This document shows, one piece after another, positions 864 to 40,708 of a DNA stretch of 64,000 nt; position 1 is the stretch's first letter; each line of letters begins with the position of its first letter. Under the pieces are notes generated by a model. That model was not told the DNA's origin and ran no database searches. It was given only the letters and a program-made list of their open reading frames with translations. A program made the translations under genes and the position numbers. Origin of the DNA: an uncultured bacterium (GTDB taxonomy: Bacteria; Patescibacteriota; Saccharimonadia; UBA4664); contig CAVUEQ010000001.1 in NCBI GenBank assembly GCA_963740635.1, forward strand, positions 81,026 through 145,025. The letters are read 5' to 3'.

Positions 864-954
864 TAGGGTGTAACCGTGTGAAGGTGTGCGCGTACCAGGT
901 CGCCTCGATGTAAATCGAAGATTCCGGGGACTAGCGGGTGGAAACAGCCGAAGC

Positions 955-3900: not shown

Positions 3901-6900
3901 ATTGCCGGCACCACTGCTATCACCGGCCCAACGACCGTTACGAACCGAACCAGCGGCTCGTCAGACACGTTTGTGGTGAGTAACTCGACCTCTACTGGCA
4001 ACGTGGCGGTGTTTAAGGACAACTCGACAGCGGTGGCAACAATCGCCGACGGCGGGGCGACGACCTTTAAGAATGCGGTCGACTCGGCCTCCGCCTTCCT
4101 GGTGCAAAACTTGGGGGGCGCGGACCTGTTCAAGGTGGACACTTCGAATACCAACATTGTGGCCGGTAGCAGCTCGGGCGATGTCCGCGCCTGGAGCAGT
4201 GATACCACAGGCACGATATCCGCCCGGGATCTGGCAAAAACCGCCACGGTGGGCGGATACGTCTACACCGTCGGTGGTTGCGATACCTCCGGGAGTTCAT
4301 CCGCGACGGTGCAGTACGCCAAGATTGCCGCGGATGGGTCGCTGGGCAACTGGGGCACCACCACGAGCATTCCCGCCAATGCGTGCCTGGGGGCCGGTGT
4401 TGCAGCGGCGAACGGATATTTGTACGTCACAAACTACAATGGCTCGGCCATCGAGACTTACTACGCCAAGCCGGCCCTGGACGGAACTGTCAGCGCCTGG
4501 ACGACCAGTCCGGTCACCATCGCCAGTGGCTACCAGGAGTACGGCCTGACGGCGTACTCAAATTACCTTTATGTCCTCGGCGGGACAAGTGAGATTACGA
4601 CGGTCCAGTACTCCAGAGTGAATCCGGACGGCACGATCGGTGCCTGGGCGGCAACGTCGTCACTGGCGCTGGGGTTGAAGGCGGCTCAGCCGGTGGTGGC
4701 AAACGGGTACATGTACATGGCCGGCGGCAACGGCGGGGGAAGCGGCGCCAACGATGACGTGCAGCGGGCCAAGATTAACGCCGACGGTACGCTGGGATCC
4801 TGGTCGAACCAGACGAATGTGCTTCCGGATATCCGGGCGTATGCTGTTAACCTGGCGCTCAACGGCTACTTGTACGTGATTAGCGGAGCCGAAACCTCAG
4901 CCGGCACTAACCCCAGCAACACCGTGTACTACGCGCCGTTTAATGCCGATGGTACCGTGGGATCGTTTACTTCCAGTGCCAGCACGCTGCCCGCCGTCCG
5001 CTGGCTGAGCTCCGGCTTTGTGGCCAACGGTTACCTGTACGTCATCAGTGGTACGCCCGACGTCGATGCTAACGCCACGACCACCACCTACTACACCTCG
5101 GGCAGCCGGGTGCAGGTGGCGGGTTCGCTGGATCTGATCGGCATTTCGGGCGAGGAGTTGCCGGAAGGCTCTACCGGTGGTCAGCTGTATGCCGGCGATA
5201 CCTACGTCGCTGGTCTGATGCAGGTGACAGGGGCGGCAAACTTCCTTAATAATGTGTCGGTTAACCGGGATCTGTCGGTGGGCGGCATGGTGGCCTTCCG
5301 CAACGCGACCAACTCGGCCACGGCCTTTGCGGTGCAAGACTCTCTGGGGGCAGCGCTGTTGGCGGTGGATACGGCGACGCGGGGGGCCGGCGGAGGGAAC
5401 TTGCTGAAGGTCGGGAACTCGACGGGTACTGACGGTGCCACGACGATTTTCCAGCTTGATTCGTCCTCAGCCAACCCCACTTCGAACCTGTCGGCGCTCA
5501 ACGGCGGGTTGTATTACAACTCGAACACCACCAAGCTGATGGCGATTGAGAATGGGGCGGTGCAGACGGTATGTACGACGATTGCGGTCTGCTCGGGCTA
5601 CGCGGCCGGGACGGGAACGGCGTTTTTGCAGAATGGCAATAGTTTCTCGGCTACTGCAGTGCTCGGGACCAACGACGCGCAGGCGCTTGAGTTAGAGACT
5701 GGCGGGGTGACGCGGCTGACGGTGAGCTCGACCGGTAGCACGACAGTTGCATCGGGCAATTCGTTCACGGTGACGAGCGGGGCGACGACTTTGACCGGGG
5801 CCACCAGCGGGGACGCCTTCGCGGTGAGCAACAGTACCTCGACCGGTAACATTGCCGTGTTCAAGGATAATTCGACGACTGTGGCGAGGATTGCCGATGG
5901 CGGCGGGGCGTATTTCCAAAATGCAGCCGACTCCACTAATGCCTTCAATATCGAGACGCTCGCGGCCGATAGCCTATTCAAGGTTGACACTACGAATTCA
6001 CGAGTTGGCATCAATCTTCGCGGCACAAACACTCCGACGCTCGGCTCCGGGGTGCAGGGCCTGGAAGTGAATGGGGCGATCCGGCTGTCCGGGGGCGCCA
6101 CGGCATCGCTCAACGATGACTTCACGACCCCGGTGGGTACGAGCGTGAAGTCCAAGATTAATATTCCGCTGTTCAACCCGGGAAACTTCGGGCAGATTCT
6201 GGCTTTTGGTCTACCTTCGGGGTCGGATGGGACGGCGCGGGCGATCTCGGTGTTTGATGACCGGGCGGCGGGGGACAACCAACCGCCGCTGAATGTGTTT
6301 GCGCCGAACGAAAACAACCTGCTGGGTCTGAGCTGGGACGGCTCAAACACTACCGGATATCTCAAAGTGACCGGGTCGAATTCGGTTGGCATCAAGGCTA
6401 ACGGGACGGCAGCCGCCACGTTTAGCTCGTCGGCCGTGAGCCTGTTGCAGGACACGACGGTGGCTGCGAACAAGAGTTTGACTCTGACGAGTGGTACGGG
6501 TACGTTCGCGCAGACCTACACCGGCACGACCACCGATGCTCATATCATTACGGCCAACTCGCTCACGACCGGGACGGCGCTGAAAGTGACGTCGGCGTCG
6601 AATTCGGCGGCCAACTCGGCTTGGAGCGCGGTGTCGCTGAACGTGACGAACAACCAGGGCACGACGGCCGTGAGCACCGGGACCATTGCCGGGCTGGACC
6701 TGCAGTATACCCAGAACACATCCGTGGCCGGCAACACCAAGACGGTGGCGAACTTTGCGATCGCGCAGAATAACAGCTCGAGTACGGATAGTGCAGTGAG
6801 TTCCATTATTAATGTAGCGAACAATGACACCGCGACCGGTAACCAGATCACGGCTGCCAAGGGCGTGAACATTGACGGCGCCAATGTGACGGACGGGGTG

Positions 6901-9900
6901 TACTTCAACGGCACGTTTGGGACGAACCTGATCAATTCCAGCACAGGCAACTTTGTGGTGGCGCAAAGCGGGGCGGTGACGGCGGTGGGCGTGAACTCGG
7001 GGAGCGGGTTGATTCAGGGCACTGGTGGCGAAACGACCACGGGTACAATCCAGCTCAATGCGTCCGGTGCGGGTGTGACGACCATTGGTAACGCATCGAG
7101 CGGGGCGCTGACAGTGGCGGCGGGTGCGAACTCCACTATAAATACGGGCTCTAATTCGCTGGCGGTGACATCGAGTAACTTTAATGTGTCGACCGGCGGC
7201 GTGCTGAATGTGGTGGGTGGGTCGGCCGGGTTCCAGATTGGGGGCGCGGCGGCCAGCGGGGACTTCCTGCGCGGGAACGGCACGAGCTTTGTGGCCGGCA
7301 CTATCCAGGCGACGGATGCGACCGGCGTGTTTGTGAAGAATGTGCCGGCTGCCACGAGCGACAACACGATCAACCCGGGCGCCAACAACGCCGTGGCGTT
7401 GACGGTGCGCGGTTCGAGCGATGGATCCAACCCCAGTATTCTCGACATCCGCGATTCGGGTAACACTCAGCAGGCGTTTTTTAACTCAGCGGGTTCGCTG
7501 AATGTGGCTCAGGTAATTCAGCCGACTACCAATAATGCAGTGGACCTTGGCGTGACGGGGACCAACACTTTCCGTACAGGCTACTTTGGCACGAGTGTGA
7601 TAGCGGCCGCGTCGACGCTTAACGGAACGTCGCTGACATTTGGCGGGACGTCGAATGCGACGGTGAAACCGGCCGACCAGGCGTCGGCGGCGACAGCCGG
7701 AGTGAACCTCACGGTGCAGGCGGCGGCCGGCAATACCTCGGGCGTTGGCGGCAACCTGGTGCTCAACGCCGGGGCCGGGGGTAACGCGGCGGCAGGTGGT
7801 AACGCAACAATCCAAGGTGGTGCAGCCGGCGGCGGAAACACCGCCGGCGGGACAGCTACGGTCCAGGGTGGGACGGCCTCGGGTACCGCTGCCGGTGGTG
7901 CAGTGACGGTCCAGGGTGGTACGGCGGCCTCGAATGCCTCCAGTATCGGTGGCGCAGTCACAATTGTCGGTGGTTCAGCCGGGGCGACGGCCGGTTCGCA
8001 GGGTGGCGCGGTCGCGATTACTGGTGGAGCGGGTACCAGCACCGGCACCGGCGCGGCCGGCAACACGGTGACGATCACCGGCGGCGCGGCCGGTGGCAGC
8101 GGCAACAACGCCGGCGGCGCCACAACAGTGCAAGGCGGCCAGGCAACCGGAACCGCGACCGGCGGGCTCCTTACGCTGCAGGGCGGCGCGGCCGCCGCCG
8201 CTGCCGGCAGCCAGGGCGGTAGCGTATCGGTGCTGGGCCGGGCCGGTTCTAGTACTGGTACAGGTGGAGCGGGCGGCAATATCACCATAACGGCCGGAGC
8301 GGCTGCAGGCAGTGGAGCGAACAATGGTGGCAGTGTTACCATCGCTGCCGGGGCGGCTTCGAGTACTGGTGTGCCGGGCGTGGTGAGCATAGCCGCGCCA
8401 GTCTTTACTTCGGTGAGCGAGTCGTTTACGCAGACTGGTAACAACCAGACCTTCACGTCAGGCACTGATCCAGCGCTGCAGACTAACCTGGACGCGTACG
8501 GCACTATAGTGATGAACGTCACCGGCGCCTATACCGGAGCGACCGTCACGATGCCGTCGCCGACAAATACGGCTGCCGGACGGGTGATGCTCGTATCAGC
8601 AGCTAGCGGCTCGGTGGCCTTCACCCTGGCGGCGACGGGTATGTCGAGCGTGAACATGAGCGCCGGCAACACCGCCACGCTGGTGTGGAACGGCAGCGGT
8701 TGGAGCGGCACCACGACGGCCAGCTCGCTGCAGCAGGTGTATAACAATACCTCCACGACGCCGGCATCTATTATTACGACATCGTCCACCAAGAATATTC
8801 TGTTGCAGGCCGGCAGCGGTTACGACAACGCCAACTTGTTCCAGATCGGCAACAGCGTGGGTGCGCAGGAGCTGACGGTGGATACTACCAATACCGCTAC
8901 GGGCCTGAACCTGATGCCGAACAGCGGGGCGGAAACGGCGACCGGCTTTACGACGACCTATCCGTTGACCGGCTTCGGAACGGTCGGCACTGAGGACCGA
9001 ACGACTTCCACCTTCGCTTCTGGCTCGGCAGCGGTTTACGCGACGCCAACCGCAGCAAATAGTGGCATCCGCGCCAACTTGGGCGCAGCTCTAACTACCT
9101 CGAAGGTATACAACGTATCATTTACGGTCATGTCGAGCACCGCGTGGAGCGATATTGATGTCCGTTACAACCGCACTGGCACAACGTCGGACGGAGCAGC
9201 GGCTACCTGTTCTACGGCTAGCTCCACCGGTGGCTCCACCTTCAATACACGGACTGTGAGTACCACCGCTTGGACCAAGATTGTCTGCTATCTGACGACA
9301 TCGGCTTCGGCGGGAGACGCCACGGCCAACATTGTTATTTTCCAGACCGCATCCACTAGCCGTACGATCTACGTCGACAACATCGCGGTGGTAAATCAAA
9401 ATACTACCGGCGCTCAGGACGTAGGCGTTTTACAGGTTGGTGGAACCTACAGTCAGGGGCTAACCTTGATGACACTGGACTCGTACGCTAGCACTCCGTG
9501 GACCGGTGCCGGTAACACAAATCTATTTGGCTCGATGTATTACGACACTACGGCCGGCCTCATTAAGTGCTATCAGGCATCCGGCTGGGGTACTTGCGGG
9601 GCGGCGCCGAATAACAACGTGGGCTTGATTCCGGAGTATGGCAACGCTGTGCTCAACGGCACTATCGGGGCCGGAGGTGGCACTGACTCCAATATCGGGA
9701 CGATGACCGCCAATATTTGTTCTGGTACCAGTAGGCTAAGCGTAAACACGTCCGGCCCCTGCGCAGCCACCGAACGACTACAACTACTACCAGTGGACAT
9801 CGAGTCAAAATCTTACAGACCAACAGACTTACGACATCTTCGTGCGCTACCAGTTGCCGCCGACATTTAATAACTTTGCCAGTGACTCGACAATCCAGGC

Positions 9901-10785: not shown

Positions 10786-11163
10786 TCAGGATAAGAGCTC
10801 GAGTTTTATGCCGGGTAGTCCCTGATACGTTTTATAGAGTGATTTATCGAGTGTAACAAAGTGACTTACACCGTGGCGGATAGCGGTAGCCAGTTGAAGG
10901 GCATCTTCGTAGTCCTTGGTGCGGGTGTTGATGAAAGCCCATTCGAAGTCGGCGGCGTCTAGTGGCAAGATGGAGTAGTCGGCTAGAAATTGGCGCAGTA
11001 TGGGCAGAACAGTAACGGACGTGCCGAAATGAACAACCAGGTGGGCTGTGAGGGCTGAGATATAAAGTACACCATTCGCGTACCGTTGCAAGATTTGCCT
11101 GGCGCTGGCTTGGCGGGTCCGGTCTAGCAGGATTTCGAGTAGGATGTTGGCGTCGAGGAAGAC
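10786..11163 (-). CDS. vapC: PIN-domain toxin (VapC-like); start codon unresolved
   Basis: PIN-like sequence EVFLDANILLEILLDRTRQ...DYEDALQLATAIRHGVSHFVTLD lies immediately downstream of an antitoxin gene. No ATG/GTG/TTG occurs in frame near the expected N-terminus (codons read AAT ACG GTC GCT AAT ACC GGC GAG GTC). The 5' coordinate is therefore approximate. Confidence 0.65.
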   Translation of the reverse strand, partial: VFLDANILLEILLDRTRQASARQILQRYANGVLYISALTAHLVVHFGTSVTVLPILRQFLADYSILPLDAADFEWAFINTRTKDYEDALQLATAIRHGVSHFVTLDKSLYKTYQGLPGIKLELLS

Positions 11164-11173
11164 CTCGCCGGTA

Positions 11174-11437
11174 TTAGCGACCGTATTTCTTGGCGATGGA
11201 GTCACGGTAGATTTCCTTGATGGGCGCGTTTGGATCGAAGGGCGACGGCTGTTTGGGTGCGGCATCAAAGGCGCGTAAGCCCGCGAGCGGCTGCCGGTTT
11301 TGGAGTTTGGGCTCGGCAGGACTGAGGCGGACCGGTTGCTTGAAACGGTGCTTGACGACGACTTCTTCGCCGGCCAGTACCCGGTCCAGCACTTGGTCGA
11401 GGTGTGCGCGTAGCTCTTTGGCGCCAATTGTCTTCAT
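11174..11437 (-). CDS. Phd/YefM-type antitoxin
   Basis: 87 aa. The N-terminus MKTIGAKELRAHLDQVLDRVLAGEEVVVKHRFKQPV is typical of Phd/YefM antitoxins. It sits directly upstream of the PIN gene. Confidence 0.75.
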   Translation of the reverse strand: MKTIGAKELRAHLDQVLDRVLAGEEVVVKHRFKQPVRLSPAEPKLQNRQPLAGLRAFDAAPKQPSPFDPNAPIKEIYRDSIAKKYGR

Positions 11438-11548: not shown

Positions 11549-14500
11549 GTGGACCTCAGGCGCAAGGCTGATAATTTACTGGCGTTAATACTCCAAACCG
11601 ACTGGCGCAAAATTGCCAGGCGGTGGTATTGGCGTGGGCGCCGGCCGGTATTAGGGATTTGGCGGCGGGTGCAGTCGGGCTGGAAGGGGCTGCGGCAACT
11701 GCGGTGGCGGGACCTGCGGCAGATGGGGCGGCGCGTGGGGAGGCAGCTGCGGCGGTTAGATATCCGAAAGCCGGTTCACGCGGTGGTGATAGGGGTGATA
11801 TTGGCGGGGATTATCGCGCCGGTGTCCGATTGGGTAGCCAACAATGAGCGCTACCGCCTGGACGGGCCGCGGGCGGACGTGGTGGAGAAGCCGTCGCCCA
11901 AGCTCAAGAGCAAACTGCTGTATGACAAAGCTAAGAAGGCCAGCGTGTTTAACGCTGATGGCGAGAAGGCGACGTCGGAAGACGCGAAAGACGCCCTGAC
12001 GTCGCGGGTGGGCGGGGGCGAGGAGAAGACGGCGCAGCTCTACAGCGCCACCCTGCCGGACCGGGCTACGGATGGCATAGACGTGCGCGACAATGTGAAC
12101 AAAGTGTCGGTGAAATTCCGGCCGCTGTTTGGCGTGATGGACGGCCAGGCTCGCAGCGGGCGGGTGATATATCCGCTGAAGGGGCAAGACGGGGCGATGG
12201 TTTATACGCCCAAGGCCAACGCGATCAAGGAAGATATTTTGCTGCAGTCGGCGCCGGGGAATAAGGCGGAGTATAGCTACCAGTTGGAACTGCCGGATTC
12301 ACTGGCGGCGCGGCTGGGGTCAGACGGCTCGCTGGGGTTCTACGCCGGCGACCCGAAATTGTTTGGCAACATTACGTTTGGCAGTGACAAAGACCGCGAT
12401 CTGGTGGAAGACGCCCGCAAGAAGGCCGACAAGAATACGCTGCTGTTTACGATCCCCGCGCCGACGATTACCCAGGGGGCAAAGCCGGCGGGCAATCCGC
12501 AGGCGAAGTTTAGCCTGGACGGCAAGAAGCTCACGGTGCACGTGACCGGGTTGGCCGGCGCGGCTTACCCGCTGTCGATCGACCCGACATTCTACATCGC
12601 TTCGACGGCGGATTTTTTGCTCGGGAGCTCGGATGACAACGTCGACATCTCTCAGGCCAACCAGGTGGGCCGGGCGGCGCTCACCGGCGGGTCGCTGCAG
12701 ACTTGGGCGAGCACAGCTTATAACTTGAGCTTCACAAAGATTCCCAGCGGGACGAGCACCACGAATTTTGCATTTGGTATCGCGGTGTACAACGGGTATA
12801 TGTATCAGCTCGGGGGCCACGACACTGGAACAACGGACGTGGCATATGCGCCAATAAGCCTTACCACCGGAGACCTCACGAGCGGGTTTACTGCGTTGAC
12901 ATCCTTTCAAACTGGTCGAGTGGGAATGCAAGCCTTTGGCTATAATGGCTACCTTTACATTGTGGGCGGCGAAAATGCGGCCGGGACGACGATTTATGCG
13001 ACTACGGAGTACGCGAAATTGACGGATACCGGCGCTATCTCGGCCGACAGCGGTTGCGGGACTCCTTGGTGCTATGGAACTAATCTGAACACAGCTCGGG
13101 CGTTTTTTGCAGCTGCTCAATATCAGGGAGTGCTGTATGTATTTGGCGGATCTACCAGCGACTCGCCGACGCTCAACGGCACGCTCACAAAAACTGGTGA
13201 ATATTCCCGTATCGGCGGTGACGGGTCTATCGGTAGCTGGACAACCAATACGAATGACTTGCCGAGTAACCGGGACCGATTTAGCGCGGCGGCCTATAAC
13301 GGGTATGTTTACATAACAGGGGGTTTGGACACTACCACGACCGTGACCAGCGCGGTTAGCTACGCTCCCATAAATAGCGACGGCACGTTGGGTGCGTGGG
13401 TGTCGACCACGGCCTTCCCGACCGCCCGGCGCGACCATGGGCTGGGTATGGAGCGGGGGCATATGTATATCTACGGCGGATGTCCCTTCGGCAACCCCTG
13501 CAACAGCGGCGATTCATTTAACGATACCAACTATGCGGTAGTGAACGCCGACGGGAGCATCGGGCAGTGGCAGCAGACCAACAATATGAACAACGCCCGC
13601 AGTATGATGGCGACCACTTTCTATAACGGATGGCTGTATTCGGCGGGTGGCTGCAGCCGAGAGAATGCCGGCGCCAACGACTGCAGATCGGAAAAAAGTA
13701 ACATATTCAAAACGACCTTTGACTTACCCGGTCGTTTCGATAACGGCATTCAGACTTTGATGACCACGCCGCCGTACAACAACAATGGGATAGGAACGGC
13801 GCGTTTCGGGGGGCAGTCGGTAGCGCTGAACGGTTACCTGTATCTGGTAAGCGGCTGTGCATCGACGGCTGCGAACTGTAACAACGCCTATACGTCGTCA
13901 GTGGAATACTCCACTATTAATGCCGACGGGTCACTGGGGACCTGGGCTTCTGCGGGTACAATGATTGCGAGCGCGGGTGGTACCAACAAGGCTGGTCGAG
14001 TAGGGCATGCAGTGGTGGCGTACAATACCAAAATTTATATTATAGGTGGTTTGGAATATACCAATGGAAATGCCGATTCGTGGAGAGGCGATACAGTGTC
14101 TGCGGTACAAGCCTCCAACGGTACGCTCGGTACTTGGACAAATGAGACTAATGTATTCCCGACGGCGAACGGATCGGCCGTTCGAGGTTTTGGAACGGCC
14201 GTTATTTGGCATAATAATATTTATTACTTGGGTGGCCGGGACTCCACGACGACGGTGTATACCGACATCTTCAGGGCGACGCTTACGGGCAACACGCTTG
14301 GCACATGGGCGACGGCTAAGCAGACCAATGGGTCGACCGCGCAGGTCTTGAACAACGCACGATGGGGTCACTCCGGTGGTATTTGGGGCAACTGGATATA
14401 CGTGGTAGGGGGGCAGAGCAACACTACCGGGACGTATCTGAGCTCAGCCAACAGTGTGGAGCGGCTAAATTTGAACAATGACGGAACTTTCGCAAGTGAT

Positions 14501-16327
14501 ACCACGCTTACTAACGGCACGGCAGGGCGAACTCGTTTTGCCGGCGGGTTCGTTCATAACGGCTACTTGTATACTTTTGGCGGCTACAATAACAGTACCA
14601 GTGCCACAACGAAAATGTACTGGACACGCCTGGATCCCACGACCGGCAATTTGGGGTCGGACGCGGCAACGCAGCAGTGGTCTTCAACCAACATCGGTAA
14701 CTTTGGTAGTCCGTATGGCTTGGCGCAAGCCAGAGGAGCGACAACGGCGACAGCTGTGGACGGGCATTTTTACATACTGGGTGGATGTTCTGCGACAATG
14801 GCTTCAACTGTTTTTAAAGCGTGTGGGACCTTGGTGACGACTACGAATTCGGTGGAGGTGTACCTTCCGAACAACGGCGGGACCGGGCAGACCGGGACGT
14901 GGTGTAGTACTTCTCCGACCTGTGCTCGAGTCTTGCCAAACGCCAAAGCGGATGCGGCGGCGGTGGCTTATAACGGTATTATCTATAGTATTGGCGGATG
15001 CACGGCGTATACGTCGGGTGTGTGTTCGACATGGTCGTCAGAAGTTAAGAGTAATCCGATAGCGTCGGATGGGACGCTCAGTGCAAGTTGGGCGACGGAG
15101 AATTCACTGACCACCGCGACTGGATTGCTGCAAGCTGTGGCCTATAACGGGTATATTTATGTGCTCGGTGGATGCATAAGTGCGAGTTGTAATACAACGA
15201 ATCCGGCGGCTGTCGCGACAGTGCTGTTCGCGACAGTTTCGAGTACCGGGGTGCTTGGTTCGTGGACGGCGGCCTCGCACAACATGGGGACGGCCCGTCG
15301 TGCTTTCGGGGCGGTGATTTCGAGCGGGTACATTTACGCGATCGGTGGGGAGGACGCGTCTGGTAGCAAGCTCTCGAGCACGGAATACGCATTGCTGGAT
15401 CCTACCACTGGAGATGTGGGCTCGTGGACTTCTGGCAACGCTTTTACGACGGCCCGGGCCCGGCATAGCGTGGCGGTGTACAACGGGGTGATTTATGTGG
15501 TCGGGGGGATAGATGGCAGCAGCAATACCTTATTGGACGTGCAGTATGCGGCCCTTAGCACGTCAGATGGGTCGATTGGGACTTGGGCGAATACGACAGA
15601 TATTCCGCGCGGCATGATATCCCGGCAAGTTGTGACGGCCAATGGGTATATGTATTTCCTGGGCAACGAGGGGACCACGACTGAGGTGTCCTACGCGGAC
15701 ATAAATGCTAATGGCACACTCGGGCTGCTATATGATCAGCCGAATGCTTTGGCTGGGGCACATGCCCATGGTGCGGCTGTGCAGTCTAATGGATTCATAT
15801 ATATATTAGGCGGATGCACGTTGAGCAGCGGAAACTGCAGTACAGTTTCGACCACCACCGAGTATGCCGGTCAGAAGGCGATTTCGCGGGCGGCGCATTA
15901 TTCGAAGCTGTGGGAGACGCAGGGCATCGATACGGCCCCGTCACAGATTGTGGTAAATGGGACTAGCTCGGGGGGAAGTAAGGTATCGACGATTTTGCGC
16001 ACATCGAGCAGTTTCGATCCCGTGCTCGGTATCCCACAGGTAATAAACCCAACTCAGTTCAATACATATTACCGCGTCTATCCGCTAAACTCGAGCGGTG
16101 TGAATGTGGGTGTGGCCAAGACTTATGCGATGGTGGTTATTATGGACGACACGCAGGCCGGGACATTTCCGGATGTGAACACGGGTGGCATTCAGACGAC
16201 GGTGACTAGCATTACCTTGTACTACCACGCCAACCCGAGCCGGCGATTGCGGCACGGGGCGTCGTTCTCGAATGTGGGCTGCAACATCGTGCCGGCGAAC
16301 GGGTGTATTTTGGACACGGCGCCTTAG
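11549..16327 (+). CDS. Giant N-terminally anchored Kelch-repeat surface protein (1,592 aa)
   Basis: GTG start with an AAGGAG RBS. An Arg/Trp-rich N-terminal tail is followed by a TM helix (VHAVVIGVILAGIIAPV). I counted 18 blades by the xGxxYxxGG signature (NGYMYQLGG, NGYLYIVGG, NGYVYITGG, NGYIYVLGG and others), with the recurrent DG(S/T)(L/I)GxW. A non-Kelch C-terminal domain of about 170 aa ends ...YYHANPSRRLRHGASFSNVGCNIVPANGCILDTAP. Confidence 0.9.
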   Translation: MDLRRKADNLLALILQTDWRKIARRWYWRGRRPVLGIWRRVQSGWKGLRQLRWRDLRQMGRRVGRQLRRLDIRKPVHAVVIGVILAGIIAPVSDWVANNERYRLDGPRADVVEKPSPKLKSKLLYDKAKKASVFNADGEKATSEDAKDALTSRVGGGEEKTAQLYSATLPDRATDGIDVRDNVNKVSVKFRPLFGVMDGQARSGRVIYPLKGQDGAMVYTPKANAIKEDILLQSAPGNKAEYSYQLELPDSLAARLGSDGSLGFYAGDPKLFGNITFGSDKDRDLVEDARKKADKNTLLFTIPAPTITQGAKPAGNPQAKFSLDGKKLTVHVTGLAGAAYPLSIDPTFYIASTADFLLGSSDDNVDISQANQVGRAALTGGSLQTWASTAYNLSFTKIPSGTSTTNFAFGIAVYNGYMYQLGGHDTGTTDVAYAPISLTTGDLTSGFTALTSFQTGRVGMQAFGYNGYLYIVGGENAAGTTIYATTEYAKLTDTGAISADSGCGTPWCYGTNLNTARAFFAAAQYQGVLYVFGGSTSDSPTLNGTLTKTGEYSRIGGDGSIGSWTTNTNDLPSNRDRFSAAAYNGYVYITGGLDTTTTVTSAVSYAPINSDGTLGAWVSTTAFPTARRDHGLGMERGHMYIYGGCPFGNPCNSGDSFNDTNYAVVNADGSIGQWQQTNNMNNARSMMATTFYNGWLYSAGGCSRENAGANDCRSEKSNIFKTTFDLPGRFDNGIQTLMTTPPYNNNGIGTARFGGQSVALNGYLYLVSGCASTAANCNNAYTSSVEYSTINADGSLGTWASAGTMIASAGGTNKAGRVGHAVVAYNTKIYIIGGLEYTNGNADSWRGDTVSAVQASNGTLGTWTNETNVFPTANGSAVRGFGTAVIWHNNIYYLGGRDSTTTVYTDIFRATLTGNTLGTWATAKQTNGSTAQVLNNARWGHSGGIWGNWIYVVGGQSNTTGTYLSSANSVERLNLNNDGTFASDTTLTNGTAGRTRFAGGFVHNGYLYTFGGYNNSTSATTKMYWTRLDPTTGNLGSDAATQQWSSTNIGNFGSPYGLAQARGATTATAVDGHFYILGGCSATMASTVFKACGTLVTTTNSVEVYLPNNGGTGQTGTWCSTSPTCARVLPNAKADAAAVAYNGIIYSIGGCTAYTSGVCSTWSSEVKSNPIASDGTLSASWATENSLTTATGLLQAVAYNGYIYVLGGCISASCNTTNPAAVATVLFATVSSTGVLGSWTAASHNMGTARRAFGAVISSGYIYAIGGEDASGSKLSSTEYALLDPTTGDVGSWTSGNAFTTARARHSVAVYNGVIYVVGGIDGSSNTLLDVQYAALSTSDGSIGTWANTTDIPRGMISRQVVTANGYMYFLGNEGTTTEVSYADINANGTLGLLYDQPNALAGAHAHGAAVQSNGFIYILGGCTLSSGNCSTVSTTTEYAGQKAISRAAHYSKLWETQGIDTAPSQIVVNGTSSGGSKVSTILRTSSSFDPVLGIPQVINPTQFNTYYRVYPLNSSGVNVGVAKTYAMVVIMDDTQAGTFPDVNTGGIQTTVTSITLYYHANPSRRLRHGASFSNVGCNIVPANGCILDTAP

Positions 16328-16379
16328 AGGGCCGAAGGTTAACCGGTTTGACTTCATTCTAGTTCATGGGGCATGATGG
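15811..16379 (+). repeat. Copy 1 of the 569-nt repeat (3' end of the Kelch gene plus 52 nt downstream)
   Basis: It aligns without indels to 18013-18581 at a constant offset of 2202 nt. The first 50 nt match at about 74%. Nt 15860-16210 match at about 87% (hand count). Nt 16211-16379 are identical. Confidence 0.95.
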
Positions 16380-18003
16380 TTTGGTGGACATAAGCGTAAA
16401 GGGAAATAAATTGCTTAGAAAGTTTTGTTCTGCAGTCAGTTCGATAATGATGATTCTGTGTACACTTGTACCCGCTGGACAGGTGTCTGCGGAATCGGGA
16501 GAGCGTATACTTTTTACTGGAGGAGATGACTCCCAAACACTCATAAGCATTAAACCTGATGGCTCAAACCGTCATGTGATCGGGGCTGGCACAGAGCTAA
16601 CCGTATCGCCGGATGGCAAGAAGTTTGCATTTCTGCGATACACCGCTGTGTCAGGTGGTCTTGAGCTATTTGTAATGAACTCAGACGAGACGGGAGTTAG
16701 GAACATATCGCAAGCAGACGAGGGTCAATTTGTTGGTCCTGATTATTCGTGGTCGCCGGATAGCACGAAGATTGTTTACGAAAAAGCTGTTGATGACAAC
16801 GGAGTTGCTTTATTTGTCGTCAACATCGATGGGACTGATGACACACTTCTGAGGCCACATGTGCCAATAGTGTCAGCATACTTACCCAAGTGGTCGCCAG
16901 ATGGGCAGAAGATACTATTTACAGGTACGGACGATGACTTTGAGTTCCAAGGGGTGTATGTAATGGATGCCGATGGTCGGAATGCCGAATTGTTGGTCAA
17001 TGATGCCCTTAACGCTTCGTGGTCGCCCGATGGAGCGAATATTGCGTTTGAGGCGGATTTCTACTCAACACAGGGGAAGGAAATAGCCGTTATGAATGCA
17101 GACGGCAGTAGCCCTGTCAGGCTAACTTATGATAATGGGGCAGACATTGACCCCGTGTGGTCACCCGATGGCACGCGCATTTTGTGGTTGGCAGGTGGCC
17201 AGGCATATACGATAAGTGTTGATGGGTCGGATCGAAGACATATCAACCAAATCCAAGGATCGAGCTTGCAAACCGGCGCACGTTGGTCGCCGGACGGAAC
17301 AAGGGTAGTATTCGGCTTACTTTTGCCGCCGACTGCCGGACCTCCAAACGTATATCGCTTGTTTACTGCCTCGGCGATGGGTGGAGATGAGCTGGAAGTG
17401 AGTGCCGAAGGGGCCAATGTCCCTATGTGGGCGTACGTCGATGACACGCCAGGAGTAACAGATCCTAGGTCCTGTACGATTACTGGTACTGCTGGTGACG
17501 ATATCCTGCATGGGACACCAGGCAACGATGTAATATGTGGGCTCGGAGGTGATGACAAGATTTACGGCAACGGGGGAGTAGATACATTGTACGGTGATGC
17601 TGGAGAAGATACTCTAGATGGCGGTCCGGGAAACGACAGACTTTATGGCGGTGACGGGAATGACAAACTGGACGGTGGCGGGGGTAATGATACGCTATAT
17701 GGTGAAGCAGGAAACGATACAGTTGATGGCAGTGCGGACGATGATATCGTCTCGGGCGGAGTGGGCGACGATACAGTGCGGGGAGGGACTGGCGTTGACT
17801 CGGTCTACGGAGATGACGGGAACGATGTGATAGAGGGCAATGGTAGCGATGACATTCTATTCGGTGGAGATGGCATAGACCAATTATCTGGTGGAACTGG
17901 CAACGACCAGCTTGATGGTGGCGCTGGTACGCCGGATAGTTGTGACGGTAACGGTGGCACAGACACCGCCGTAAATTGTGAAATCTCAACCAATATTCCC
18001 TAG
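16366..18003 (+). CDS. Secreted TolB-like PD40 beta-propeller protein with C-terminal RTX-type Ca-binding repeats
   Basis: Six PD40-like repeats are visible ([68 protein letters not shown]). Nonapeptide repeats follow ([53 protein letters not shown]). The signal peptide is [28 protein letters not shown]. The likely true start is TTG 16411, after AAAGGG. The gene is visibly more A+T-rich than its flanks. Confidence 0.8.
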
Positions 18004-18012
18004 CTGTTGTAG

Positions 18013-18529
18013 CGGATGTAGGCTCAACAGCGTAAACTGCAATACGGATCTGAGCACCACCGAGTATGCTGGGCAGAAAGCGATTTCGCGGGCGGCGCAT
18101 TATTCCAAGCTGTGGGAGACACAGGGCATCGATACGGCGCCGTCGCAGATTGTGCTAAACGGGACTAGTTCGGGGGGGAGTAAGGTATCGACGATCTTGC
18201 GAACGTCATATAGTCTTGACCCGGTGCTGGGTATTGCGCAGGTAATAAACCCAACTCAGTTTAACACCTACTATCGCGTCTACCCGCTGAACTCCAGCGG
18301 TGTGAACGTGGGTGTGGCCAAGACGTATGCGCTGGTGATAATTATGGATGACACGCAAGCCGGGACATTTCCGGATGTGAACACAGGTGGCATTCAGACG
18401 ACGGTGAGTAGTATTACCTTGTACTACCACGCCAACCCGAGCCGGCGATTGCGGCACGGGGCGTCGTTCTCGAATGTGGGCTGCAACATCGTGCCGGCGA
18501 ACGGGTGTATTTTGGACACGGCGCCTTAG
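18013..18529 (+). pseudogene. Orphan C-terminal domain of a Kelch-gene paralogue (no N-terminal part, no credible own start)
   Basis: It encodes ...TTEYAGQKAISRAAHYSKLWETQGIDTAPSQIVLNGT...DTAP, which differs from the Kelch C-terminus at only 7 residues. The listed ORF 17978..18529 opens just after an in-frame TAA and has no signal or anchor sequence. Confidence 0.7.
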
Positions 18530-18581
18530 AGGGCCGAAGGTTAACCGGTTTGACTTCATTCTAGTTCATGGGGCATGATGG
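18013..18581 (+). repeat. Copy 2 of the 569-nt repeat
   Basis: See copy 1. It starts 10 nt after the stop codon of the PD40/RTX gene. Confidence 0.95.
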
Positions 18582-19191
18582 AAGTCATTTAGCGGAGTCA
18601 GTTGGCGTGTACAATGTCGGCCTACGCGCCAAGGATGTGGCTGGGAACTGGAGTCCGGTGACGTCAACAATGCTGGTAATATACGACCCGACCACGACCC
18701 TAAGGATAACGGGTAAAAATAAGAAGGATTTGGTGCCAAGCTTGGCCGGCGGGGACATACTTCCAGGGCTTGTCTCTGGCTCTCAGTCAGACGCGGCGGA
18801 TTTTGGCTTTACGGTGCAATATAAGAATGGGGTGATTGATTCAAAGAACGACTTCATTTTCAACTATCTCACCGGGACCAACTGTGGCAAGCCAAATGCT
18901 CAGAACTGTCACAGCCTAACGCTTAATGCTACCAGCTTCGCTTGGCTAGTATTGGACCAAACAAATAACTCTAGAGGAAGTTTTCAGGGGACGGCTACGG
19001 TGACTGTAGATGGAGTAACCACTTCAAACCCATTTACAGTTGAAGGTATTGACGGCGACAGGTTAAGCCCGTCCACAAATGATCACCTGTTGGTACGAGT
19101 CTTTGCTCCTGGAGCGGATCCATCGACCGCGACTCCGATTTACCAGGCGTCTGGATACATAGCTAAGGGGAATAGCATAAAGGTCCAGTAG
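18568..19191 (+). pseudogene. 5'-truncated fragment of a foreign surface-protein gene (Ig-like end plus C-terminal beta-sandwich domain)
   Basis: It has no signal peptide. Its first five codons (MGHDG) belong to the repeat spacer. It then enters mid-domain (VGVYNVGLRAKDVAGNWSPVTSTMLVIYDP), followed by a beta-sandwich (AADFGFTVQYKNG...SFAWLV...GTATVTVDG...GNSIKVQ). It is A+T-richer than the flanks. Confidence 0.55.
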
Positions 19192-19302
19192 GCTTGCTAC
19201 CATGCCAACCCGTCGCGGCGGCTGCGGCATGGGAAGTCTTTTAGCAACATTGGGTGCAACCTGAATCCGGCCGGGGGGTGCATTGAGGACACGGCGCCTT
19301 AG
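19192..19302 (+). repeat. Copy 3 (remnant) of the Kelch-gene tail: last 36 codons plus TAG
   Basis: ACYHANPSRRLRHGKSFSNIGCNLNPAGGCIEDTAP* compared with LYYHANPSRRLRHGASFSNVGCNIVPANGCILDTAP* gives 28/36 identical residues at the same length. It is in frame with ORF 18568..19191 across a single TAG. Confidence 0.85.
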
Positions 19303-19319
19303 CGTGTTTAGGTACTGGA

Positions 19320-19976
19320 CTAGTGGATTTGGAGGCTGGCGGGGGAGGAGCTGCCGAGGACATTCTGGTTGGTGACGCTGGAGACGAGGGCGGTGCCGGC
19401 GGTGAAGGCGAGGGTAGCGGCGCCGGAGGCCTTGGCTTTGAGGGTGAGCGTGGCGATTAGTTGGTCGCCCTTTTTGGGGGTGGTGGTGCCGCGGCTGACC
19501 TTTATGACACCGTTCTTGCCGCTGGTTTCGGCGGCAATTTCGAAGCCGCTGCCGGTGCCTGAGGCGGAGACGTAGTCGAATTTGTCGGATGGGTAGGTGA
19601 GGTTGGCCTGGACCGCGTTGACGTACTGGTTTTGGCTGTTTTCGCGAATGGCGACGGTGAATGACGATCCTGCGGCGAGGCTCGCGGTGGCCGGAGTGAG
19701 GTAGAGCTGCCCGTTGCCGGTGGCGGCGCCGGACTGGACGGTTGGTGTGGGTGTGACGGGCTTGGTGTTAATGTTGTTGCCGGCACGCAGACCGATGAGG
19801 GTTAGGCCGCCGATGACTGCCAGGCCGATGGCGGCCAGCACCGCAACTATCTTTATGACGGGGCCGGTGAGGGAGGCCGCCGGCTGCTGAGGCGGCTGCT
19901 GCGGGGGTTGGGGCTGTTCCGGGGGTTGCGGGGCCTGGGGCTGCTGGGGTGATTCTGGTGATTGCGCGGGTGGCAT
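19320..19976 (-). CDS. N-terminally anchored cohesin-like domain protein with Pro/Gln-rich cytoplasmic tail
   Basis: MPPAQSPESPQQPQAPQPPEQPQPPQQPPQQP is followed by a TM helix (IKIVAVLAAIGLAVIGGLTLIGL) and a beta-sandwich of about 130 aa. The beta-sandwich has a cohesin-like pattern (FTVAIRENS..VNAVQANLTYPSDKFDYVS..GDQLIATLTLKAKASG). Confidence 0.7.
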   Translation of the reverse strand: MPPAQSPESPQQPQAPQPPEQPQPPQQPPQQPAASLTGPVIKIVAVLAAIGLAVIGGLTLIGLRAGNNINTKPVTPTPTVQSGAATGNGQLYLTPATASLAAGSSFTVAIRENSQNQYVNAVQANLTYPSDKFDYVSASGTGSGFEIAAETSGKNGVIKVSRGTTTPKKGDQLIATLTLKAKASGAATLAFTAGTALVSSVTNQNVLGSSSPASLQIH

Positions 19977-19991
19977 GATTCGGGGCTCCTG

Positions 19992-20546
19992 CTAATGGAT
20001 GTAGTATGAAACAACTGCGGTGGTGGTGCCGGGAAGGTTGGCGTTGGTAACGCTTGATACAATGCCTGAATCGGGGAGGAAACTCAAGGCCGCGCTGCCA
20101 CCGGTGGGGAGGACGGTGAAGTTGATTGTGGCTACAGGCTGGTCGCCGGTGAGGGGCGTGGTGGTGCCGCGCACGAGCTTGGTGGTGCCGGGGCCGTTAG
20201 TGGATTGGGCGGCCACGCCAAAGGCGCTGGTGGTGGTGTCGATGGATGCCAGTTCGAGCTTGTCGGCGGGGTAGGCCAGGTCGGCCACGATGGCGTTGAC
20301 TGGGGTATTGAGGCTGTTTTCCCGGATTTCGAATGTGAGGGTGGAGCCTGGTGCGAACGTGCCTTCGGCCGGCGAGATGTAGATCGCGGGATTGGTGGTG
20401 ACGGCGGGGTGCCTGGCCGCTTGGCTGGTGGCTACGACTGCCCCTATGGCAACCGCGCCCACCACGACGGCGGCCAGGCTCATGACCTGGATTTGAACGC
20501 GGGGGTCGAGGGGGCTGAAGTTGGAAGGTGAGTTAGTGCGGGGCAT
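19992..20546 (-). CDS. N-terminally anchored cohesin-like domain protein (paralogue of 19320..19976)
   Basis: It has a TM helix (VMSLAAVVVGAVAIGAVVATS). The matching domain reads LTFEIRENSLNTPVNAIVADLAYPADKLELAS..GDQPVATINFTVLPTGG. Confidence 0.7.
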   Translation of the reverse strand: MPRTNSPSNFSPLDPRVQIQVMSLAAVVVGAVAIGAVVATSQAARHPAVTTNPAIYISPAEGTFAPGSTLTFEIRENSLNTPVNAIVADLAYPADKLELASIDTTTSAFGVAAQSTNGPGTTKLVRGTTTPLTGDQPVATINFTVLPTGGSAALSFLPDSGIVSSVTNANLPGTTTAVVSYYIH

Positions 20547-20567
20547 TATTTTGGCTCTCCTAAGGGG

Positions 20568-21527
20568 TTATTGCGTTACGAAGTAATCATAGCTGAGTAC
20601 GGCACCACTGCCGGGGGGAGCGGCATCGGTTTTGACCTGGAAGCCGCCGCCGTTGCGCGTGACGTAGGCTGGGGTAGAAGCGGCCGAGCCGGTGAGGGGC
20701 GAGAGCAGCACGTGCACGGTGGCGCCGTAGCCGGCGCGGAAGGTGATGGTGCCGAGCACGCCGGCGGGCGGGGAATTGCCGGTGTTGAAATTGAGGGTGC
20801 CGGCGGTGTCGTTGCCGCTGATTGAGGCCGTGCCGCCGCCGCCGACGGCCGTGCCCGTCACAAACGCCGGCGTGGGGCCTTGGGTAGCCAGATGGCTGAT
20901 GGTGAGCGGCCCGGAGATCCTGATGGTGCGCACGGCGATGGAGCTGGCGTTGAGCGAATTGAAGCCGGCGGCGCCGCCGACGTTGAGGCCGCCCGAGAGG
21001 GTGGCGAGCCCGCCGACGGTCAGGCTTTGCTGCAGGGTGGTGTTGCCGGTGACGGCCAGGTTGCTGCCCACGCTTAATCCCGTGGCAGCGGTGCTGCCGG
21101 TGATGTTGAGCTGGCTGAGGGTGACCGGGCCGTTGGCGTTGAGGTGGCCGCCGATCGAGAGGTCGCCGCCCACGTCGACCTTGCCGCGGAAGAGCGAATT
21201 GGCGCCGATGTTGAGGGTTTGGCCGGAGCTGCCGAGGTCGGAACCGATTTGGCCGAGCTTGGCAATGTCTTCGGGGCTGAGGGTGGTGATATTGGTTTTG
21301 GGCGCGGCCGGGGCCTGCTCGTGGGCTTTGCCCCAGTAGTAGCCCACGACACTCCCGACGGCAACCAGGAACACGAACAGCCCGGCAATGCGCCCGACCG
21401 CGTTGGCGCGGCCTACGAGCGCATCCCAACTGCGATTGGCCGCTCGTTTTTTGGGAGCGGCGGGGGGTTGGCCGGGTGTGGGTGGCGTTGGCGGTTGGCC
21501 AAGTGTGGGGGGTGTGCCCGGTGGCAT
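20568..21527 (-). CDS. N-terminally anchored surface protein with beta-helix-like short repeats and Pro-rich tail
   Basis: MPPGTPPTLGQPPTPPTPGQPP is followed by a TM helix (IAGLFVFLVAVGSVVGYYW). Repeats follow: VDVGGDLSIGGHLNANGPVTLSQLNITGSTAATGLSVGSNLAVTGNTTLQQSLTVGGLATLSGGLNVGG. It is the first gene of a three-gene minus-strand operon. Confidence 0.7.
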   Translation of the reverse strand: MPPGTPPTLGQPPTPPTPGQPPAAPKKRAANRSWDALVGRANAVGRIAGLFVFLVAVGSVVGYYWGKAHEQAPAAPKTNITTLSPEDIAKLGQIGSDLGSSGQTLNIGANSLFRGKVDVGGDLSIGGHLNANGPVTLSQLNITGSTAATGLSVGSNLAVTGNTTLQQSLTVGGLATLSGGLNVGGAAGFNSLNASSIAVRTIRISGPLTISHLATQGPTPAFVTGTAVGGGGTASISGNDTAGTLNFNTGNSPPAGVLGTITFRAGYGATVHVLLSPLTGSAASTPAYVTRNGGGFQVKTDAAPPGSGAVLSYDYFVTQ

Positions 21528-21624
21528 TATTACTCACAAGAATTACTGCCCAATATTATAACGCTTGTGCTCCATATATTCTAATTGTGCTTGCTGACAC
21601 TCCCTCACTTTTGACACCCGCCCG

Positions 21625-21710
21625 GTGATAAACCAGCTATACCATCACTTCACCTGCACACGGCGTGCTCGGAGGGAGCAGGAGTTGATAGTTTCATGTC
21701 ATAGTAGGGT
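21625..21710 (+). repeat. Intergenic repeat element R1 (about 86 nt)
   Basis: It shares the blocks GTGATAAA, AGCTATACCAT, ACACGnCG, CTCnGAG and GTTTCATGnCATAnTAGG, in the same order and orientation, with R2 at 21922-22008. Confidence 0.7.
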
Positions 21711-23030: not shown

Positions 23031-24176
23031 ATGAGTAGAAGGGATATCCTTCGAACCCATTACACAGGGTTATTGAGAAGGGCCGGCGCCTGGGCAGGTC
23101 TTGGTGCGTTGATGGCGAGCATGTTTGTCCCAACGGGAGCAAGTGCGGTCGGGCAACTGACGGAGCGTTCGCTCACTCTTGGGTCATCGAAGATTAGTAC
23201 ATCGACAACTTACCTATATGGCTTTAAGCCGGCGACCACGACAGCTGTCGGGTCAGTGAAGTTTCAGCTGTGTACGTCTCCGCTGGAGAACGTTTCTTGT
23301 ACCGGCCCGTCCGGTGCCGACTCATCAGTGCCAGGCGCCCTCACTCTGGGTGGTCAGATCTCAGGGTTTTCGAAGAGTAATGGTACAAACAACCCGTCTC
23401 CGACTGCGAACGTGATTTGGATAGAGAATGGTACCCCGCAAAGCTTAACAAGCGGTACAGCTTCGACTGTTCAGTTTGCGACGATTACAAACCCCTCGAC
23501 TGTCAACCAGACGTTTTACGCGCGCATTACGACCTATGCTGAAACCGCCGGTAGCACTGAGGTAGACTATGGTGCGGTAGCGGTATCGACGGCTGCCCAG
23601 ATTACTGCGAGTGCAAACGTTCAAGAGCAATTAGCGTTTTGTGTATACACCGGGGCTAATTGTGGCGCCGGTGGTTCGACTGTGAACGTCGGTACGACAT
23701 CGGATAACATTTTAAACACCAGCACCCCTACGGGCGGGACATCCAAAATGGATGCGTCGACCAACGCATCCTCAGGGTACGTCATAACGTACATAACGAC
23801 CACCATTGCTGGACACCCGAGCGCATCGTTTACATCACTTAACGACACGATTACAGATGCCGGTAGCTCAAACGTACCTGATCCCGGAGATGGTGTAGCA
23901 ATTTTCGGAATAAACCTCAAAGCTAACAGCACCTTGGGAGGCGGCTCCCTAGGAGCGAACTCGTCAGGTGGTTCAGGTGTGGCAGTTGGGTCGTATGCTG
24001 TAGCGGATCAAATCGCTTTTGTAGCCGGATCTACGCCGCAAACGGTAGCTAACAGTGCCGGTGGGCCCTCTGACACAACCACCTTCACAGTCAGTTACGT
24101 GGCTCAAGCCGGTACGACATCCAAGGCCGGCCAATACAGTGCACTGTTCACCTACGTCTGCACCGGTACATTCTAA
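23031..24176 (+). CDS. Secreted two-domain beta-sandwich surface protein, paralogue family member (possibly WxL-like); RR-containing signal peptide
   Basis: MSRRDILRTHYTGLLRRAGAWAGLGALMASMFVPTGASA is followed by the conserved mature N-terminus GQLTERSLTLGSS. The C-terminus is AGQYSALFTYVCTGTF*. It is A+T-richer than the two downstream paralogues. Confidence 0.8.
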   Translation: MSRRDILRTHYTGLLRRAGAWAGLGALMASMFVPTGASAVGQLTERSLTLGSSKISTSTTYLYGFKPATTTAVGSVKFQLCTSPLENVSCTGPSGADSSVPGALTLGGQISGFSKSNGTNNPSPTANVIWIENGTPQSLTSGTASTVQFATITNPSTVNQTFYARITTYAETAGSTEVDYGAVAVSTAAQITASANVQEQLAFCVYTGANCGAGGSTVNVGTTSDNILNTSTPTGGTSKMDASTNASSGYVITYITTTIAGHPSASFTSLNDTITDAGSSNVPDPGDGVAIFGINLKANSTLGGGSLGANSSGGSGVAVGSYAVADQIAFVAGSTPQTVANSAGGPSDTTTFTVSYVAQAGTTSKAGQYSALFTYVCTGTF

Positions 24177-24193
24177 AATAGCCTAATCGACAA

Positions 24194-24220
24194 TCCGCCA
24201 CCTCTCGGTGGTGGATTTTT
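24194..24220 (+). terminator. Intrinsic terminator
   Basis: TCCGCCACC-tctc-GGTGGTGGA (9-bp stem with one mismatch) is followed by TTTTT. It lies 18 nt after the stop of 23031..24176. Confidence 0.75.
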
Positions 24221-24245
24221 GGTTGAGGCCGAGCTGAGGGCAGGA

Positions 24246-24274
24246 TTGAGTGTTCGCTTTGTGTTCGGTATAAT
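24246..24274 (+). promoter_or_regulatory. Promoter module copy A (TTGAGT-gttcgctttgtgttcgg-TATAAT)
   Basis: One of four copies of a 29-nt promoter whose 17-nt spacer is also conserved. The other copies are at 39646, 40186 and 40894. Confidence 0.6.
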
Positions 24275-24317
24275 GAATGAGAGGTGGGGTTTATACTGGA
24301 AACAGAAGGGGAATGGT

Positions 24318-24629
24318 ATGCCGACGGTAGATTTTACACTGGAAGACTTACGAAAAGTCGTAAAAGAGGAGATCAAGAGCGAACTCGTCAAGGAACGGGA
24401 GGCTACGAAAGGGATGATCCAGGATGCCTTGGTGGCCGAGCGGAAGGTGACGCAGCGGATGATTTCGGAGGGTACGGAAGATGTTAAGCAAGACCTGAAG
24501 CAGTTTGTGGCGGACGAATTTGTGAGTTTTTGGGACAATAACCTCGGGCCGGCGTTTGATGAGTTGCATGGAGAATTTGCGAAGTTAAAGGCGCAAATGC
24601 AGAGGGCGGGCCGGGCCATGGGCCGGTAG
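24318..24629 (+). CDS. Small charged, probably coiled-coil protein (103 aa)
   Basis: ATG 24318 follows AAGGGG. The upstream part of the listed ORF 24219.. overlaps the promoter module. The sequence is MPTVDFTLEDLRKVVKEEIKSELVKEREATKG... Confidence 0.6.
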   Translation: MPTVDFTLEDLRKVVKEEIKSELVKEREATKGMIQDALVAERKVTQRMISEGTEDVKQDLKQFVADEFVSFWDNNLGPAFDELHGEFAKLKAQMQRAGRAMGR

Positions 24630-24681
24630 CAAGTAGTTTGCACTTATGATCAAGATAGGGTAGGCTTGTAGCGTAAGAACA

Positions 24682-40639: not shown

Positions 40640-40708
40640 TAACAAGACTTGACCCTCCCTGGAAGCCCAGCGGTATGATGGTAGTCCAAGATCAAAAGGA
40701 GGGGAGAA

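Follow-up and report, generated by a model that had tools for sequence, protein, structure and literature searches.

The question raised by this locus is how two copies of a gene end that differ at about one base in eight can become identical, without a single mismatch, over their last 169 nucleotides (nt). Both copies lie in the stretch of 64,000 nt that we analysed (hereafter, the window), which belongs to contig CAVUEQ010000001.1 of an uncultured bacterium of the Saccharimonadia (assembly GCA_963740635.1). The first copy is the 3' end of a long Kelch-repeat gene, here called K, and the second one is an orphan, that is, a 5'-truncated end of K separated from any complete gene. The explanation that we favour, with moderate confidence, is that the identical block was left by a recent homologous exchange of the non-reciprocal type (gene conversion) between the working 3' end of K and the orphan copy located 2.2 kb downstream. 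The elements on which the comparison is built are the following:

11549-16327, plus strand: K, a Kelch-repeat gene of 1592 amino acids (aa), delimited by its open reading frame (ORF) and its Kelch matches in Pfam; its Saccharibacteria orthologues have 1400-1600 aa.
15809-16379, plus strand: R1, copy 1 of the direct repeat, in which the final 172 codons of K and its stop are followed by a 52-nt spacer.
About 18005-18581, plus strand: R2, the orphan 5'-truncated end of K, which begins at most 4 nt past the stop of the preceding gene, X.
16211-16379, plus strand: copy 1 of the 100%-identical block, 169 nt; the end of an independent contig at 16350 agrees with its edge.
18413-18581, plus strand: copy 2 of the block, which includes a second copy of a promoter-like site (18550-18579).

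For the comparison of R1 and R2, the two copies were set against each other with a shift of 2202 nt throughout and no gaps. In this comparison the homology sets in near 15805-15850, and between 15851 and 16210 there are 45 differences in 360 nt (87.5% identity), the final two mismatches before the block being at 16206 and 16210. From that point the copies coincide through 38 codons (16211-16324), the TAG (16325-16327) and the 52 nt of the spacer (16328-16379); seen from the orphan, the identity with R1 is 87.5% up to 18412 and 100% from 18413 onwards. The agreement ends with a T at 16380 facing an A at 18582, after which the identity is about 25%, the level expected at random. The original prediction had described both the switch from about 87% to 100% identity over 169 nt and the composition of the block with its T/A edge, and the base-by-base comparison bears out the two descriptions. 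The 169 nt of the block share very recent ancestry, while the rest of the repeat is 13% diverged.

When the 45 differences were placed at random along the repeat, a run of at least 169 identical bases was obtained in 0/200,000 trials, with a largest run of 160 and a mean of 48. The analytic probability was 1.2e-8 for a run at the end of the repeat and about 5e-7 for a run at any place. Considering third codon positions only, 36 differences were distributed over 158 sites with none at the 38 sites within the block (P = 1.1e-5), and P = 1e-10 was obtained when the spacer was added to the third positions. The 120 codons located 5' of the block present 36 synonymous and 9 non-synonymous changes between R1 and R2, with proportions of differences of 0.40 (synonymous, pS) and 0.033 (non-synonymous, pN), a synonymous distance (dS) of 0.58 and a ratio of non-synonymous to synonymous distances (dN/dS) of about 0.06; within the block no change was found at 28 synonymous sites and at 52 non-coding bases. 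Among relatives, the DNA of the K tail is 80-88% identical versus 65-74% upstream, and the spacers are unalignable, except for a TTGACTT box that lies 20 nt past the stop codon, at the same offset, in two loci (L001 and L002). If the rates of these relatives are used as a scale, the tail should still show about 9 differences and the spacer about 20; the observed number is 0. Since the divergence upstream is rich in synonymous changes and the spacers of the relatives are variable, constraint at the protein level cannot explain 169 identical bases. The proposal that the block is the footprint of a recent gene conversion or of a homologous crossover is therefore supported by a switch beyond chance and by the lack of an explanation based on constraint.

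The sequence itself could be verified in an independent assembly. In the k=31 assembly of run ERR11718635, exact look-ups of the proteins of X and of Y' (the gene fragment that follows R2) retrieved two contigs that are exact substrings of the window, at 16350-18442 (2093 nt) and 18552-21663 (3112 nt). A de Bruijn graph breaks at the edges of an exact repeat, and these contigs end exactly 30 nt inside the block at three edges (16350, 18442 and 18552). Contig L026 spans the joint between X and R2. Given the exact contig matches and the breaks at the edges of the block, a chimeric join or a polishing artefact is unlikely. The exact look-up of the 101-aa product annotated in R2 retrieved no contig.

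K is probably a surface protein, and its C-terminal 172 aa form a conserved, family-specific domain with no model in Pfam or NCBIfam. The last 35 aa are nearly invariant (YYHANPSRRLRHGASF..GC..GCILDTAP; the full pattern in the family alignment is YYHANPxRRLRHGASF..GC..GCILDTAP). The AlphaFold model of the domain is mediocre, with a mean predicted local distance difference test score (pLDDT) of 63.5, a beta-sandwich core and a tail below 50, and its comparison with the PDB gave no significant match (best E-value 0.013). These 35 residues (16217-16324), which include two Cys and end in DTAP, might be a processing, anchoring or partner-binding peptide. A C-terminal sorting signal shared by several proteins was also considered and rejected, since only K orthologues carry the tail, one per locus.

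The protein database contains only nine relatives of the 172-aa domain, one of which, P0003, is the product of R2 itself. The nearest relative shows 82% identity at the protein level, and the scans of genomes and metagenomes reached 60-70% at best; no conspecific genome was found in the protein, genome and metagenome searches. An orthologous gene of about 1400-1600 aa was present in 15/22 loci from the genome and metagenome collections, and the genome records with K orthologues are metagenome-assembled genomes of Candidatus Saccharibacteria / Saccharimonadia. All 24 related loci have one K end each, and more than one was observed only in the genome studied here. An origin from tandem paralogues with deletions is disfavoured, as a second K end was found in 0/24 related loci. 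Since relatives carry one K each, R2 is most simply understood as the end of a different K allele, joined with R1 by recombination. The differences between R1 and R2 upstream of the block are mostly synonymous, which indicates that R2 still belonged to a working gene during its divergence from R1. The orphan is still an open frame of 183 aa from a GTG at 17978 (17978-18529), and the public record calls in it the 101-aa protein P0003 (18226-18529). Its lack of decay (dN/dS 0.06, intact tail) would be consistent with either a very recent truncation or a retained expression.

The order of the elements at the locus is K with R1 at its end, promoter, X, R2, promoter, Y', R3 and the neighbouring genes. 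Beyond R1 and R2, these are:

16348-16377, plus strand: promoter-like site with a -35 box TTGACT (16348-16353), an 18-nt gap and a -10 box CATGAT (16372-16377), recognised by its match to the consensus.
16411-18003, plus strand: X, a cargo gene with a PD40 (TolB-like) propeller and RTX calcium-binding repeats; the start at TTG 16411 is deduced from the sequence, and the mechanical ORF begins at 16366.
18582-19191, plus strand: Y', a 3' gene fragment with a natural stop; the mechanical ORF (18568-19191) takes its ATG from the spacer.
19195-19302, plus strand: R3, a second and decayed orphan with the last 35 codons of K and the TAG, which begins at most 4 nt past the TAG of Y' (19189-19191).
19320-21527, minus strand: three convergent genes (two with cohesin domains, one of 319 aa), assigned by Pfam and synteny, which come directly after K in most relatives and mark its ancestral end.

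The likely start codon of X is preceded by AAGGGA and followed by a signal peptide. With a threshold of E <= 1e-5, no homologue of X was found in the flanks of any related locus; the best matches elsewhere have 34-38% identity, and those above 40% span the RTX repeats only. At most 4 nt past the TAG of X (18001-18003) there is K sequence again, from codon -172 onwards, and no shared sequence able to cause a chimeric join was seen at this joint. Y' is joined to the second spacer 2 nt past the -10 box and starts in the middle of an Ig-like domain. Its homologues have 195-339 aa and share the C terminus throughout; in their alignment Y' begins only at column 144, and the longest homologues have about 110-140 extra N-terminal residues. 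Since Y' is truncated exactly at the 3' edge of the block, this edge is a rearrangement joint. The closest homologues of Y' (64% identity) are in Actinobacteria-type records, namely Dactylosporangium and a contig (L025) on which TetR, MarR and two-component genes are neighbours. Actinobacteria are the known hosts of cultivated Saccharibacteria, and this similarity makes an origin of Y' by host-to-epibiont transfer possible.

R3 presents replacements at invariant or near-invariant residues of the tail (HGK for HGA, CIE for CIL). Its identity is 71-72% to R1 and 81% to the tail of L001, and R1 is no closer to it than the tails of other species. This distance from R1, together with the greater closeness to L001, points to R3 as a third allele lineage. 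At this variable spot, the genome retains the ends of three different K alleles. As the TAG of Y' is a natural stop, the copy of the K tail that comes after it is explained by synteny and not by a fusion of Y' with the tail. The joints were placed at 18004-18008 (X with R2) and 19192-19195 (Y' with R3). The 'hypothetical proteins' of 101 to 183 aa and of 207 aa annotated at the locus are gene remnants.

The convergent genes begin 17 nt past R3, and the same neighbourhood was found in related loci. The homologue of the 319-aa gene lies about 20-60 nt past the only K stop in L003, L009, L010 and L022 and about 270-350 nt past it in L016-L019; in L015 a cohesin gene is interposed between the K stop and the 319-aa gene. 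Since the convergent genes directly follow K in these relatives, the ancestral K gene ended where R3 is now located, and everything from 16328 to 19194 was added. The interval between K and the cohesin gene varies among relatives, which have there nothing, small ORFs (three of them in L011), a RAYT-like gene or a 769-aa gene (the latter in L008, along with more). Directly behind K, the two closest relatives, L001 (2454-3020) and L002 (921-1262), carry a RAYT-like gene for a Y1 (HUH) transposase; both Y1 genes, with 44% identity between them, come after the TTGACTT box, whose offset from the K stop is conserved.

By the match of its boxes to the consensus, the spacer looks like a sigma-70-type promoter. 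The identity of the block stops 2 nt past the -10 hexamer, and in copy 1 the promoter is followed, at the proper distance, by the Shine-Dalgarno sequence AAGGGA and by the TTG of X with its signal peptide. Sites of the type TTGAC-N17-19-(T/C)ATGATGG, with a GGAGG-like site and a start codon behind them, were also observed at 40649-40681 in the window and at about 6590-6625 and about 6930-6965 in L011, and this promoter type seems to be typical of the clade.

The original prediction had suggested an attachment-like role for the spacer, in which the palindrome GGTTAACC lies at 16337-16344. A palindrome of 8 nt is expected about once per 256 positions, which means hundreds of them in 64 kb. The recommended search for the spacer beside other cargo genes, in genomes and metagenomes, returned only the two copies of the window, where up to 3 mismatches were allowed; the searches elsewhere were for exact matches. 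In these, the last 32 nt of the spacer did not appear in 25 fetched loci, a 43-nt pattern had no match in the metagenome collection and two sub-patterns had none in the viral collection. No integrase, resolvase or transposase was detected in Pfam scans of about 38 ORFs of the window, which also has no homologue of the Y1 gene of the relatives. Furthermore, the right borders of the cargo are not halves of the spacer; they are K fragments, one of 172 codons and one of 35, whose starts are just past the stops of the cargo genes. With no recombinase, no recurrence, right borders of another kind and a promoter-like sequence, the proposal of an attachment site found no support. Two related candidates were rejected as well: an RNA element, because no Rfam family came near the threshold at the spacer, no tRNA lies alongside and the fold is no better than that of shuffled sequences (z = 0.04); and a mobile element, because the RAYT-like Y1 gene is carried by L001 and L002 and has no counterpart in the window, where the Pfam scans revealed no recombinase.

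The history that we propose would have two steps. In the first one, DNA from related Saccharibacteria would recombine through homology in K, bringing a new K end, the promoter spacer and a cargo gene, and the far end of the incoming DNA would join illegitimately inside the resident K, stranding the old gene end. By this process R3 would have been stranded first and R2 later. In the second step, the 571-bp direct repeats R1 and R2, 13% diverged, would pair, and at least 169 bp would be copied from one to the other, with heteroduplex or synthesis running up to the end of the homology, that is, to the joint that truncates Y', 2 nt past the -10 box. Copying up to the end of the homology would account for a sharp 3' edge together with a 5' edge placed among scattered mismatches. 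Both natural competence and the homologous recombination of linear DNA have been shown in cultivated Saccharibacteria (PMC10633639). A process is also described in which incoming DNA is integrated by homology at one end and by illegitimate joining at the other (PMC3240628).

Several points weigh against this history. A conversion tract normally needs homology on two sides and is expected to be embedded in diverged homology on both; here the diverged flank exists only on the 5' side, no diverged homology follows 16380/18582, the 3' side being the end of the homology, and the arrangement fits the remnant of an identical duplication equally well. Either copy could have been the donor. No strain without the conversion or without X was found, and the order of events is deduced from one genome. 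The contigs of ERR11718635 cover only the outer 30 nt of the block and not its interior. Moreover, X and Y' each end, with their own TAG, at most 4 nt before an orphan, a precision that random illegitimate joining does not predict. Finally, the 5' edge of the block (16211) is within about 10 nt of the position equivalent to the start of R3 (about 16217); this closeness could be due to chance (about 3%, judged post hoc) or to a preference of recombination for the place where the invariant tail begins.

The most serious competitor, which we consider rather less probable than the exchange, is that the block is the remnant of an identical duplication of the 571-bp K end plus promoter that arrived with X, for example by single-crossover integration of a circularised fragment, and that a later allelic import, 13% diverged, replaced K up to 16210. 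The 5' edge would then be the endpoint of the import and the 3' edge the end of the duplication, so that the sharp 3' edge would not require a conversion tract to stop exactly where the homology ends. In the same direction go the differences upstream of the block, which resemble those of two working alleles, the uptake and recombination of linear DNA in Saccharibacteria, and the geometry of the locus (repeat, spacer, X, repeat, spacer), which is that of a single-crossover product. However, this account requires a circular double-stranded intermediate or some other duplicative insertion, with no evidence for either, it leaves unexplained why X is joined to R2 right past its stop codon, and R3 and the truncated Y' would need a further and different history; one genome cannot separate it from conversion. 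Far less probable is an artefact of assembly or polishing, in which reads of similar copies were pooled, or a chimera of two strains. In its favour, the source, a contig of 828,923 nt, is of the metagenome-assembly type, and the 1-nt frame break that a giant gene shows near 34640-34650 may be due to an indel error. Nevertheless, the independent k=31 contigs match exactly across the joint between X and R2 and break 30 nt inside the block, that joint offers no shared sequence for a chimeric join, and the divergence expected in the tail is at least 8%, so the reads would not cross-map.

Two other explanations have, in our opinion, hardly any probability. If the spacer, with or without the tail, were an attachment or cassette site at which a site-specific recombinase inserts cargo behind K, it would be understandable that the cargo varies among relatives, that X and Y' segments start from the same spacer base, that the spacer holds a short palindrome (GGTTAACCGGTT) and that this place is occupied in L001 and L002 by a Y1 transposase-like gene. 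Against this, the spacer occurs twice in 64 kb, with no exact match in the fetched loci or in the metagenome and viral collections; the spacers of relatives cannot be aligned with it beyond the -35 box; neither a recombinase or transposase in the scanned ORFs nor a Y1 homologue in the window was detected; the right borders of the cargo are K fragments; and the fold of the spacer is not unusual. Equally improbable is that the identity of the two blocks is maintained by selection on the sequence, acting on a near-invariant protein tail and a promoter. It is true that no part of the family is more conserved than the last 35 residues, the DNA of the tail is better conserved than that upstream among relatives, and there is a promoter in the spacer; yet the differences predicted even so for tail and spacer are all missing, the relatives vary freely at the synonymous sites of the tail and in the spacer outside TTGACTT, and the orphan R2 has no evident need for a conserved tail.

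The recent exchange that we favour can be compared with known systems. In Enterobacteria, orphan rhs-CT and cdiA-CT modules located behind full-length Rhs or CdiA genes are described as displaced gene ends, and in Salmonella LT2 a stretch of 522 bp with 95% identity between the main gene and an orphan mediates rearrangement (PMC3967940). This is the closest layout to the one described here, as a full-length gene (K) is followed by 5'-truncated fragments of itself (R2 with 172 codons, R3 with 35 codons), these fragments resemble ends displaced from earlier alleles, a block of high identity of a few hundred bp can serve as recombination substrate and older remnants lie further downstream. However, the shared block of the Rhs and CdiA systems is a conserved core upstream of a variable toxin tip, with an immunity gene in each module, whereas here it comprises the extreme C terminus and the intergenic promoter, and the variable parts are separate genes, X and Y'. 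Besides, the host is a Saccharibacterium and not one of the Enterobacteria. No match to Rhs, CdiA or toxin families was found at the locus, where the downstream genes encode a PD40/RTX protein and a truncated Ig-like protein and nothing points to a toxin or immunity role; the locus is not a member of that family.

Ectopic gene conversion takes place between dispersed or tandem bacterial paralogues, such as the tufA/tufB pair. As in that case, a perfect run is observed inside diverged copies, beyond chance and independent of coding constraint; in contrast, one of the partners here is a non-functional orphan, and the diverged flank is on one side only. In pilE/pilS of Neisseria, the expressed gene of a surface protein has promoterless 5'-truncated copies nearby with a common conserved 3' sequence. 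K also has 5'-truncated copies nearby with which it shares a conserved 3' end, but the changes between R1 and R2 are mostly synonymous (dN/dS 0.06) with no sign of diversifying exchange, and there are two orphans here and none in relatives. Integration hot spots occur between conserved core genes, and the interval between K and the cohesin gene resembles them in having different cargo in each relative; the difference is that the turnover left here truncated copies of a flanking gene, which expose the breakpoints. With homology-facilitated illegitimate recombination (PMC3240628), the locus would have in common a homologous end in K, the illegitimate joints proposed here between X and R2 and between Y' and R3, and a competent host group; joints at most 4 nt from the stops are not predicted by the process.

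In a phylum that has been little studied, this event is an ordinary genome scar of a known kind, from which no new mechanism emerges. It provides a base-resolved example of gene gain and loss in the reduced genome of a Saccharibacterium that is probably naturally competent. As a side effect of the exchange, the same promoter now faces both X and Y', and the perfect repeat of 169 bp could delete X by recombination. A more speculative proposal, to which we give little credit, is that the K tail plus promoter works as a reusable docking cassette, a homology anchor with which competent Saccharibacteria would capture foreign genes, including those of their Actinobacteria hosts, behind a ready promoter. 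If this were true, the orphan ends would keep perfect repeats by conversion, and the population would switch cargo like X by deletion and re-acquisition.

The remainder of the window is ordinary chromosome, with parA/parB, a peptide-chain release factor, ribosomal protein S2, EF-Ts and a prolyl-tRNA-synthetase-like gene, among others. The two tandem cohesin-domain genes that adjoin the K locus (19320-20546, minus strand) have in common a 64-nt repeat at 70% identity. Together with K and a beta-helix protein of 2994 aa (886-9870), they suggest a cell-surface locus. Three tandem paralogous genes of 381, 368 and 336 aa, without Pfam matches, lie at 23031-26798 and are kept downstream of the K locus in relatives; a 94-nt repeat is present there at 25200 and 26237, with 73% identity. 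At 29948-39638, the ORFs 29948-35020 and 34443-39638 form one repeat protein of about 3,200 aa (GRYxYV-type), with a frame change of 1 nt near 34640-34650, around CTTAAGT, which might reflect a genuine pseudogene, a recoding site or an indel introduced by the assembly. A PIN-domain gene (10786-11427, minus strand) is located just upstream of K.

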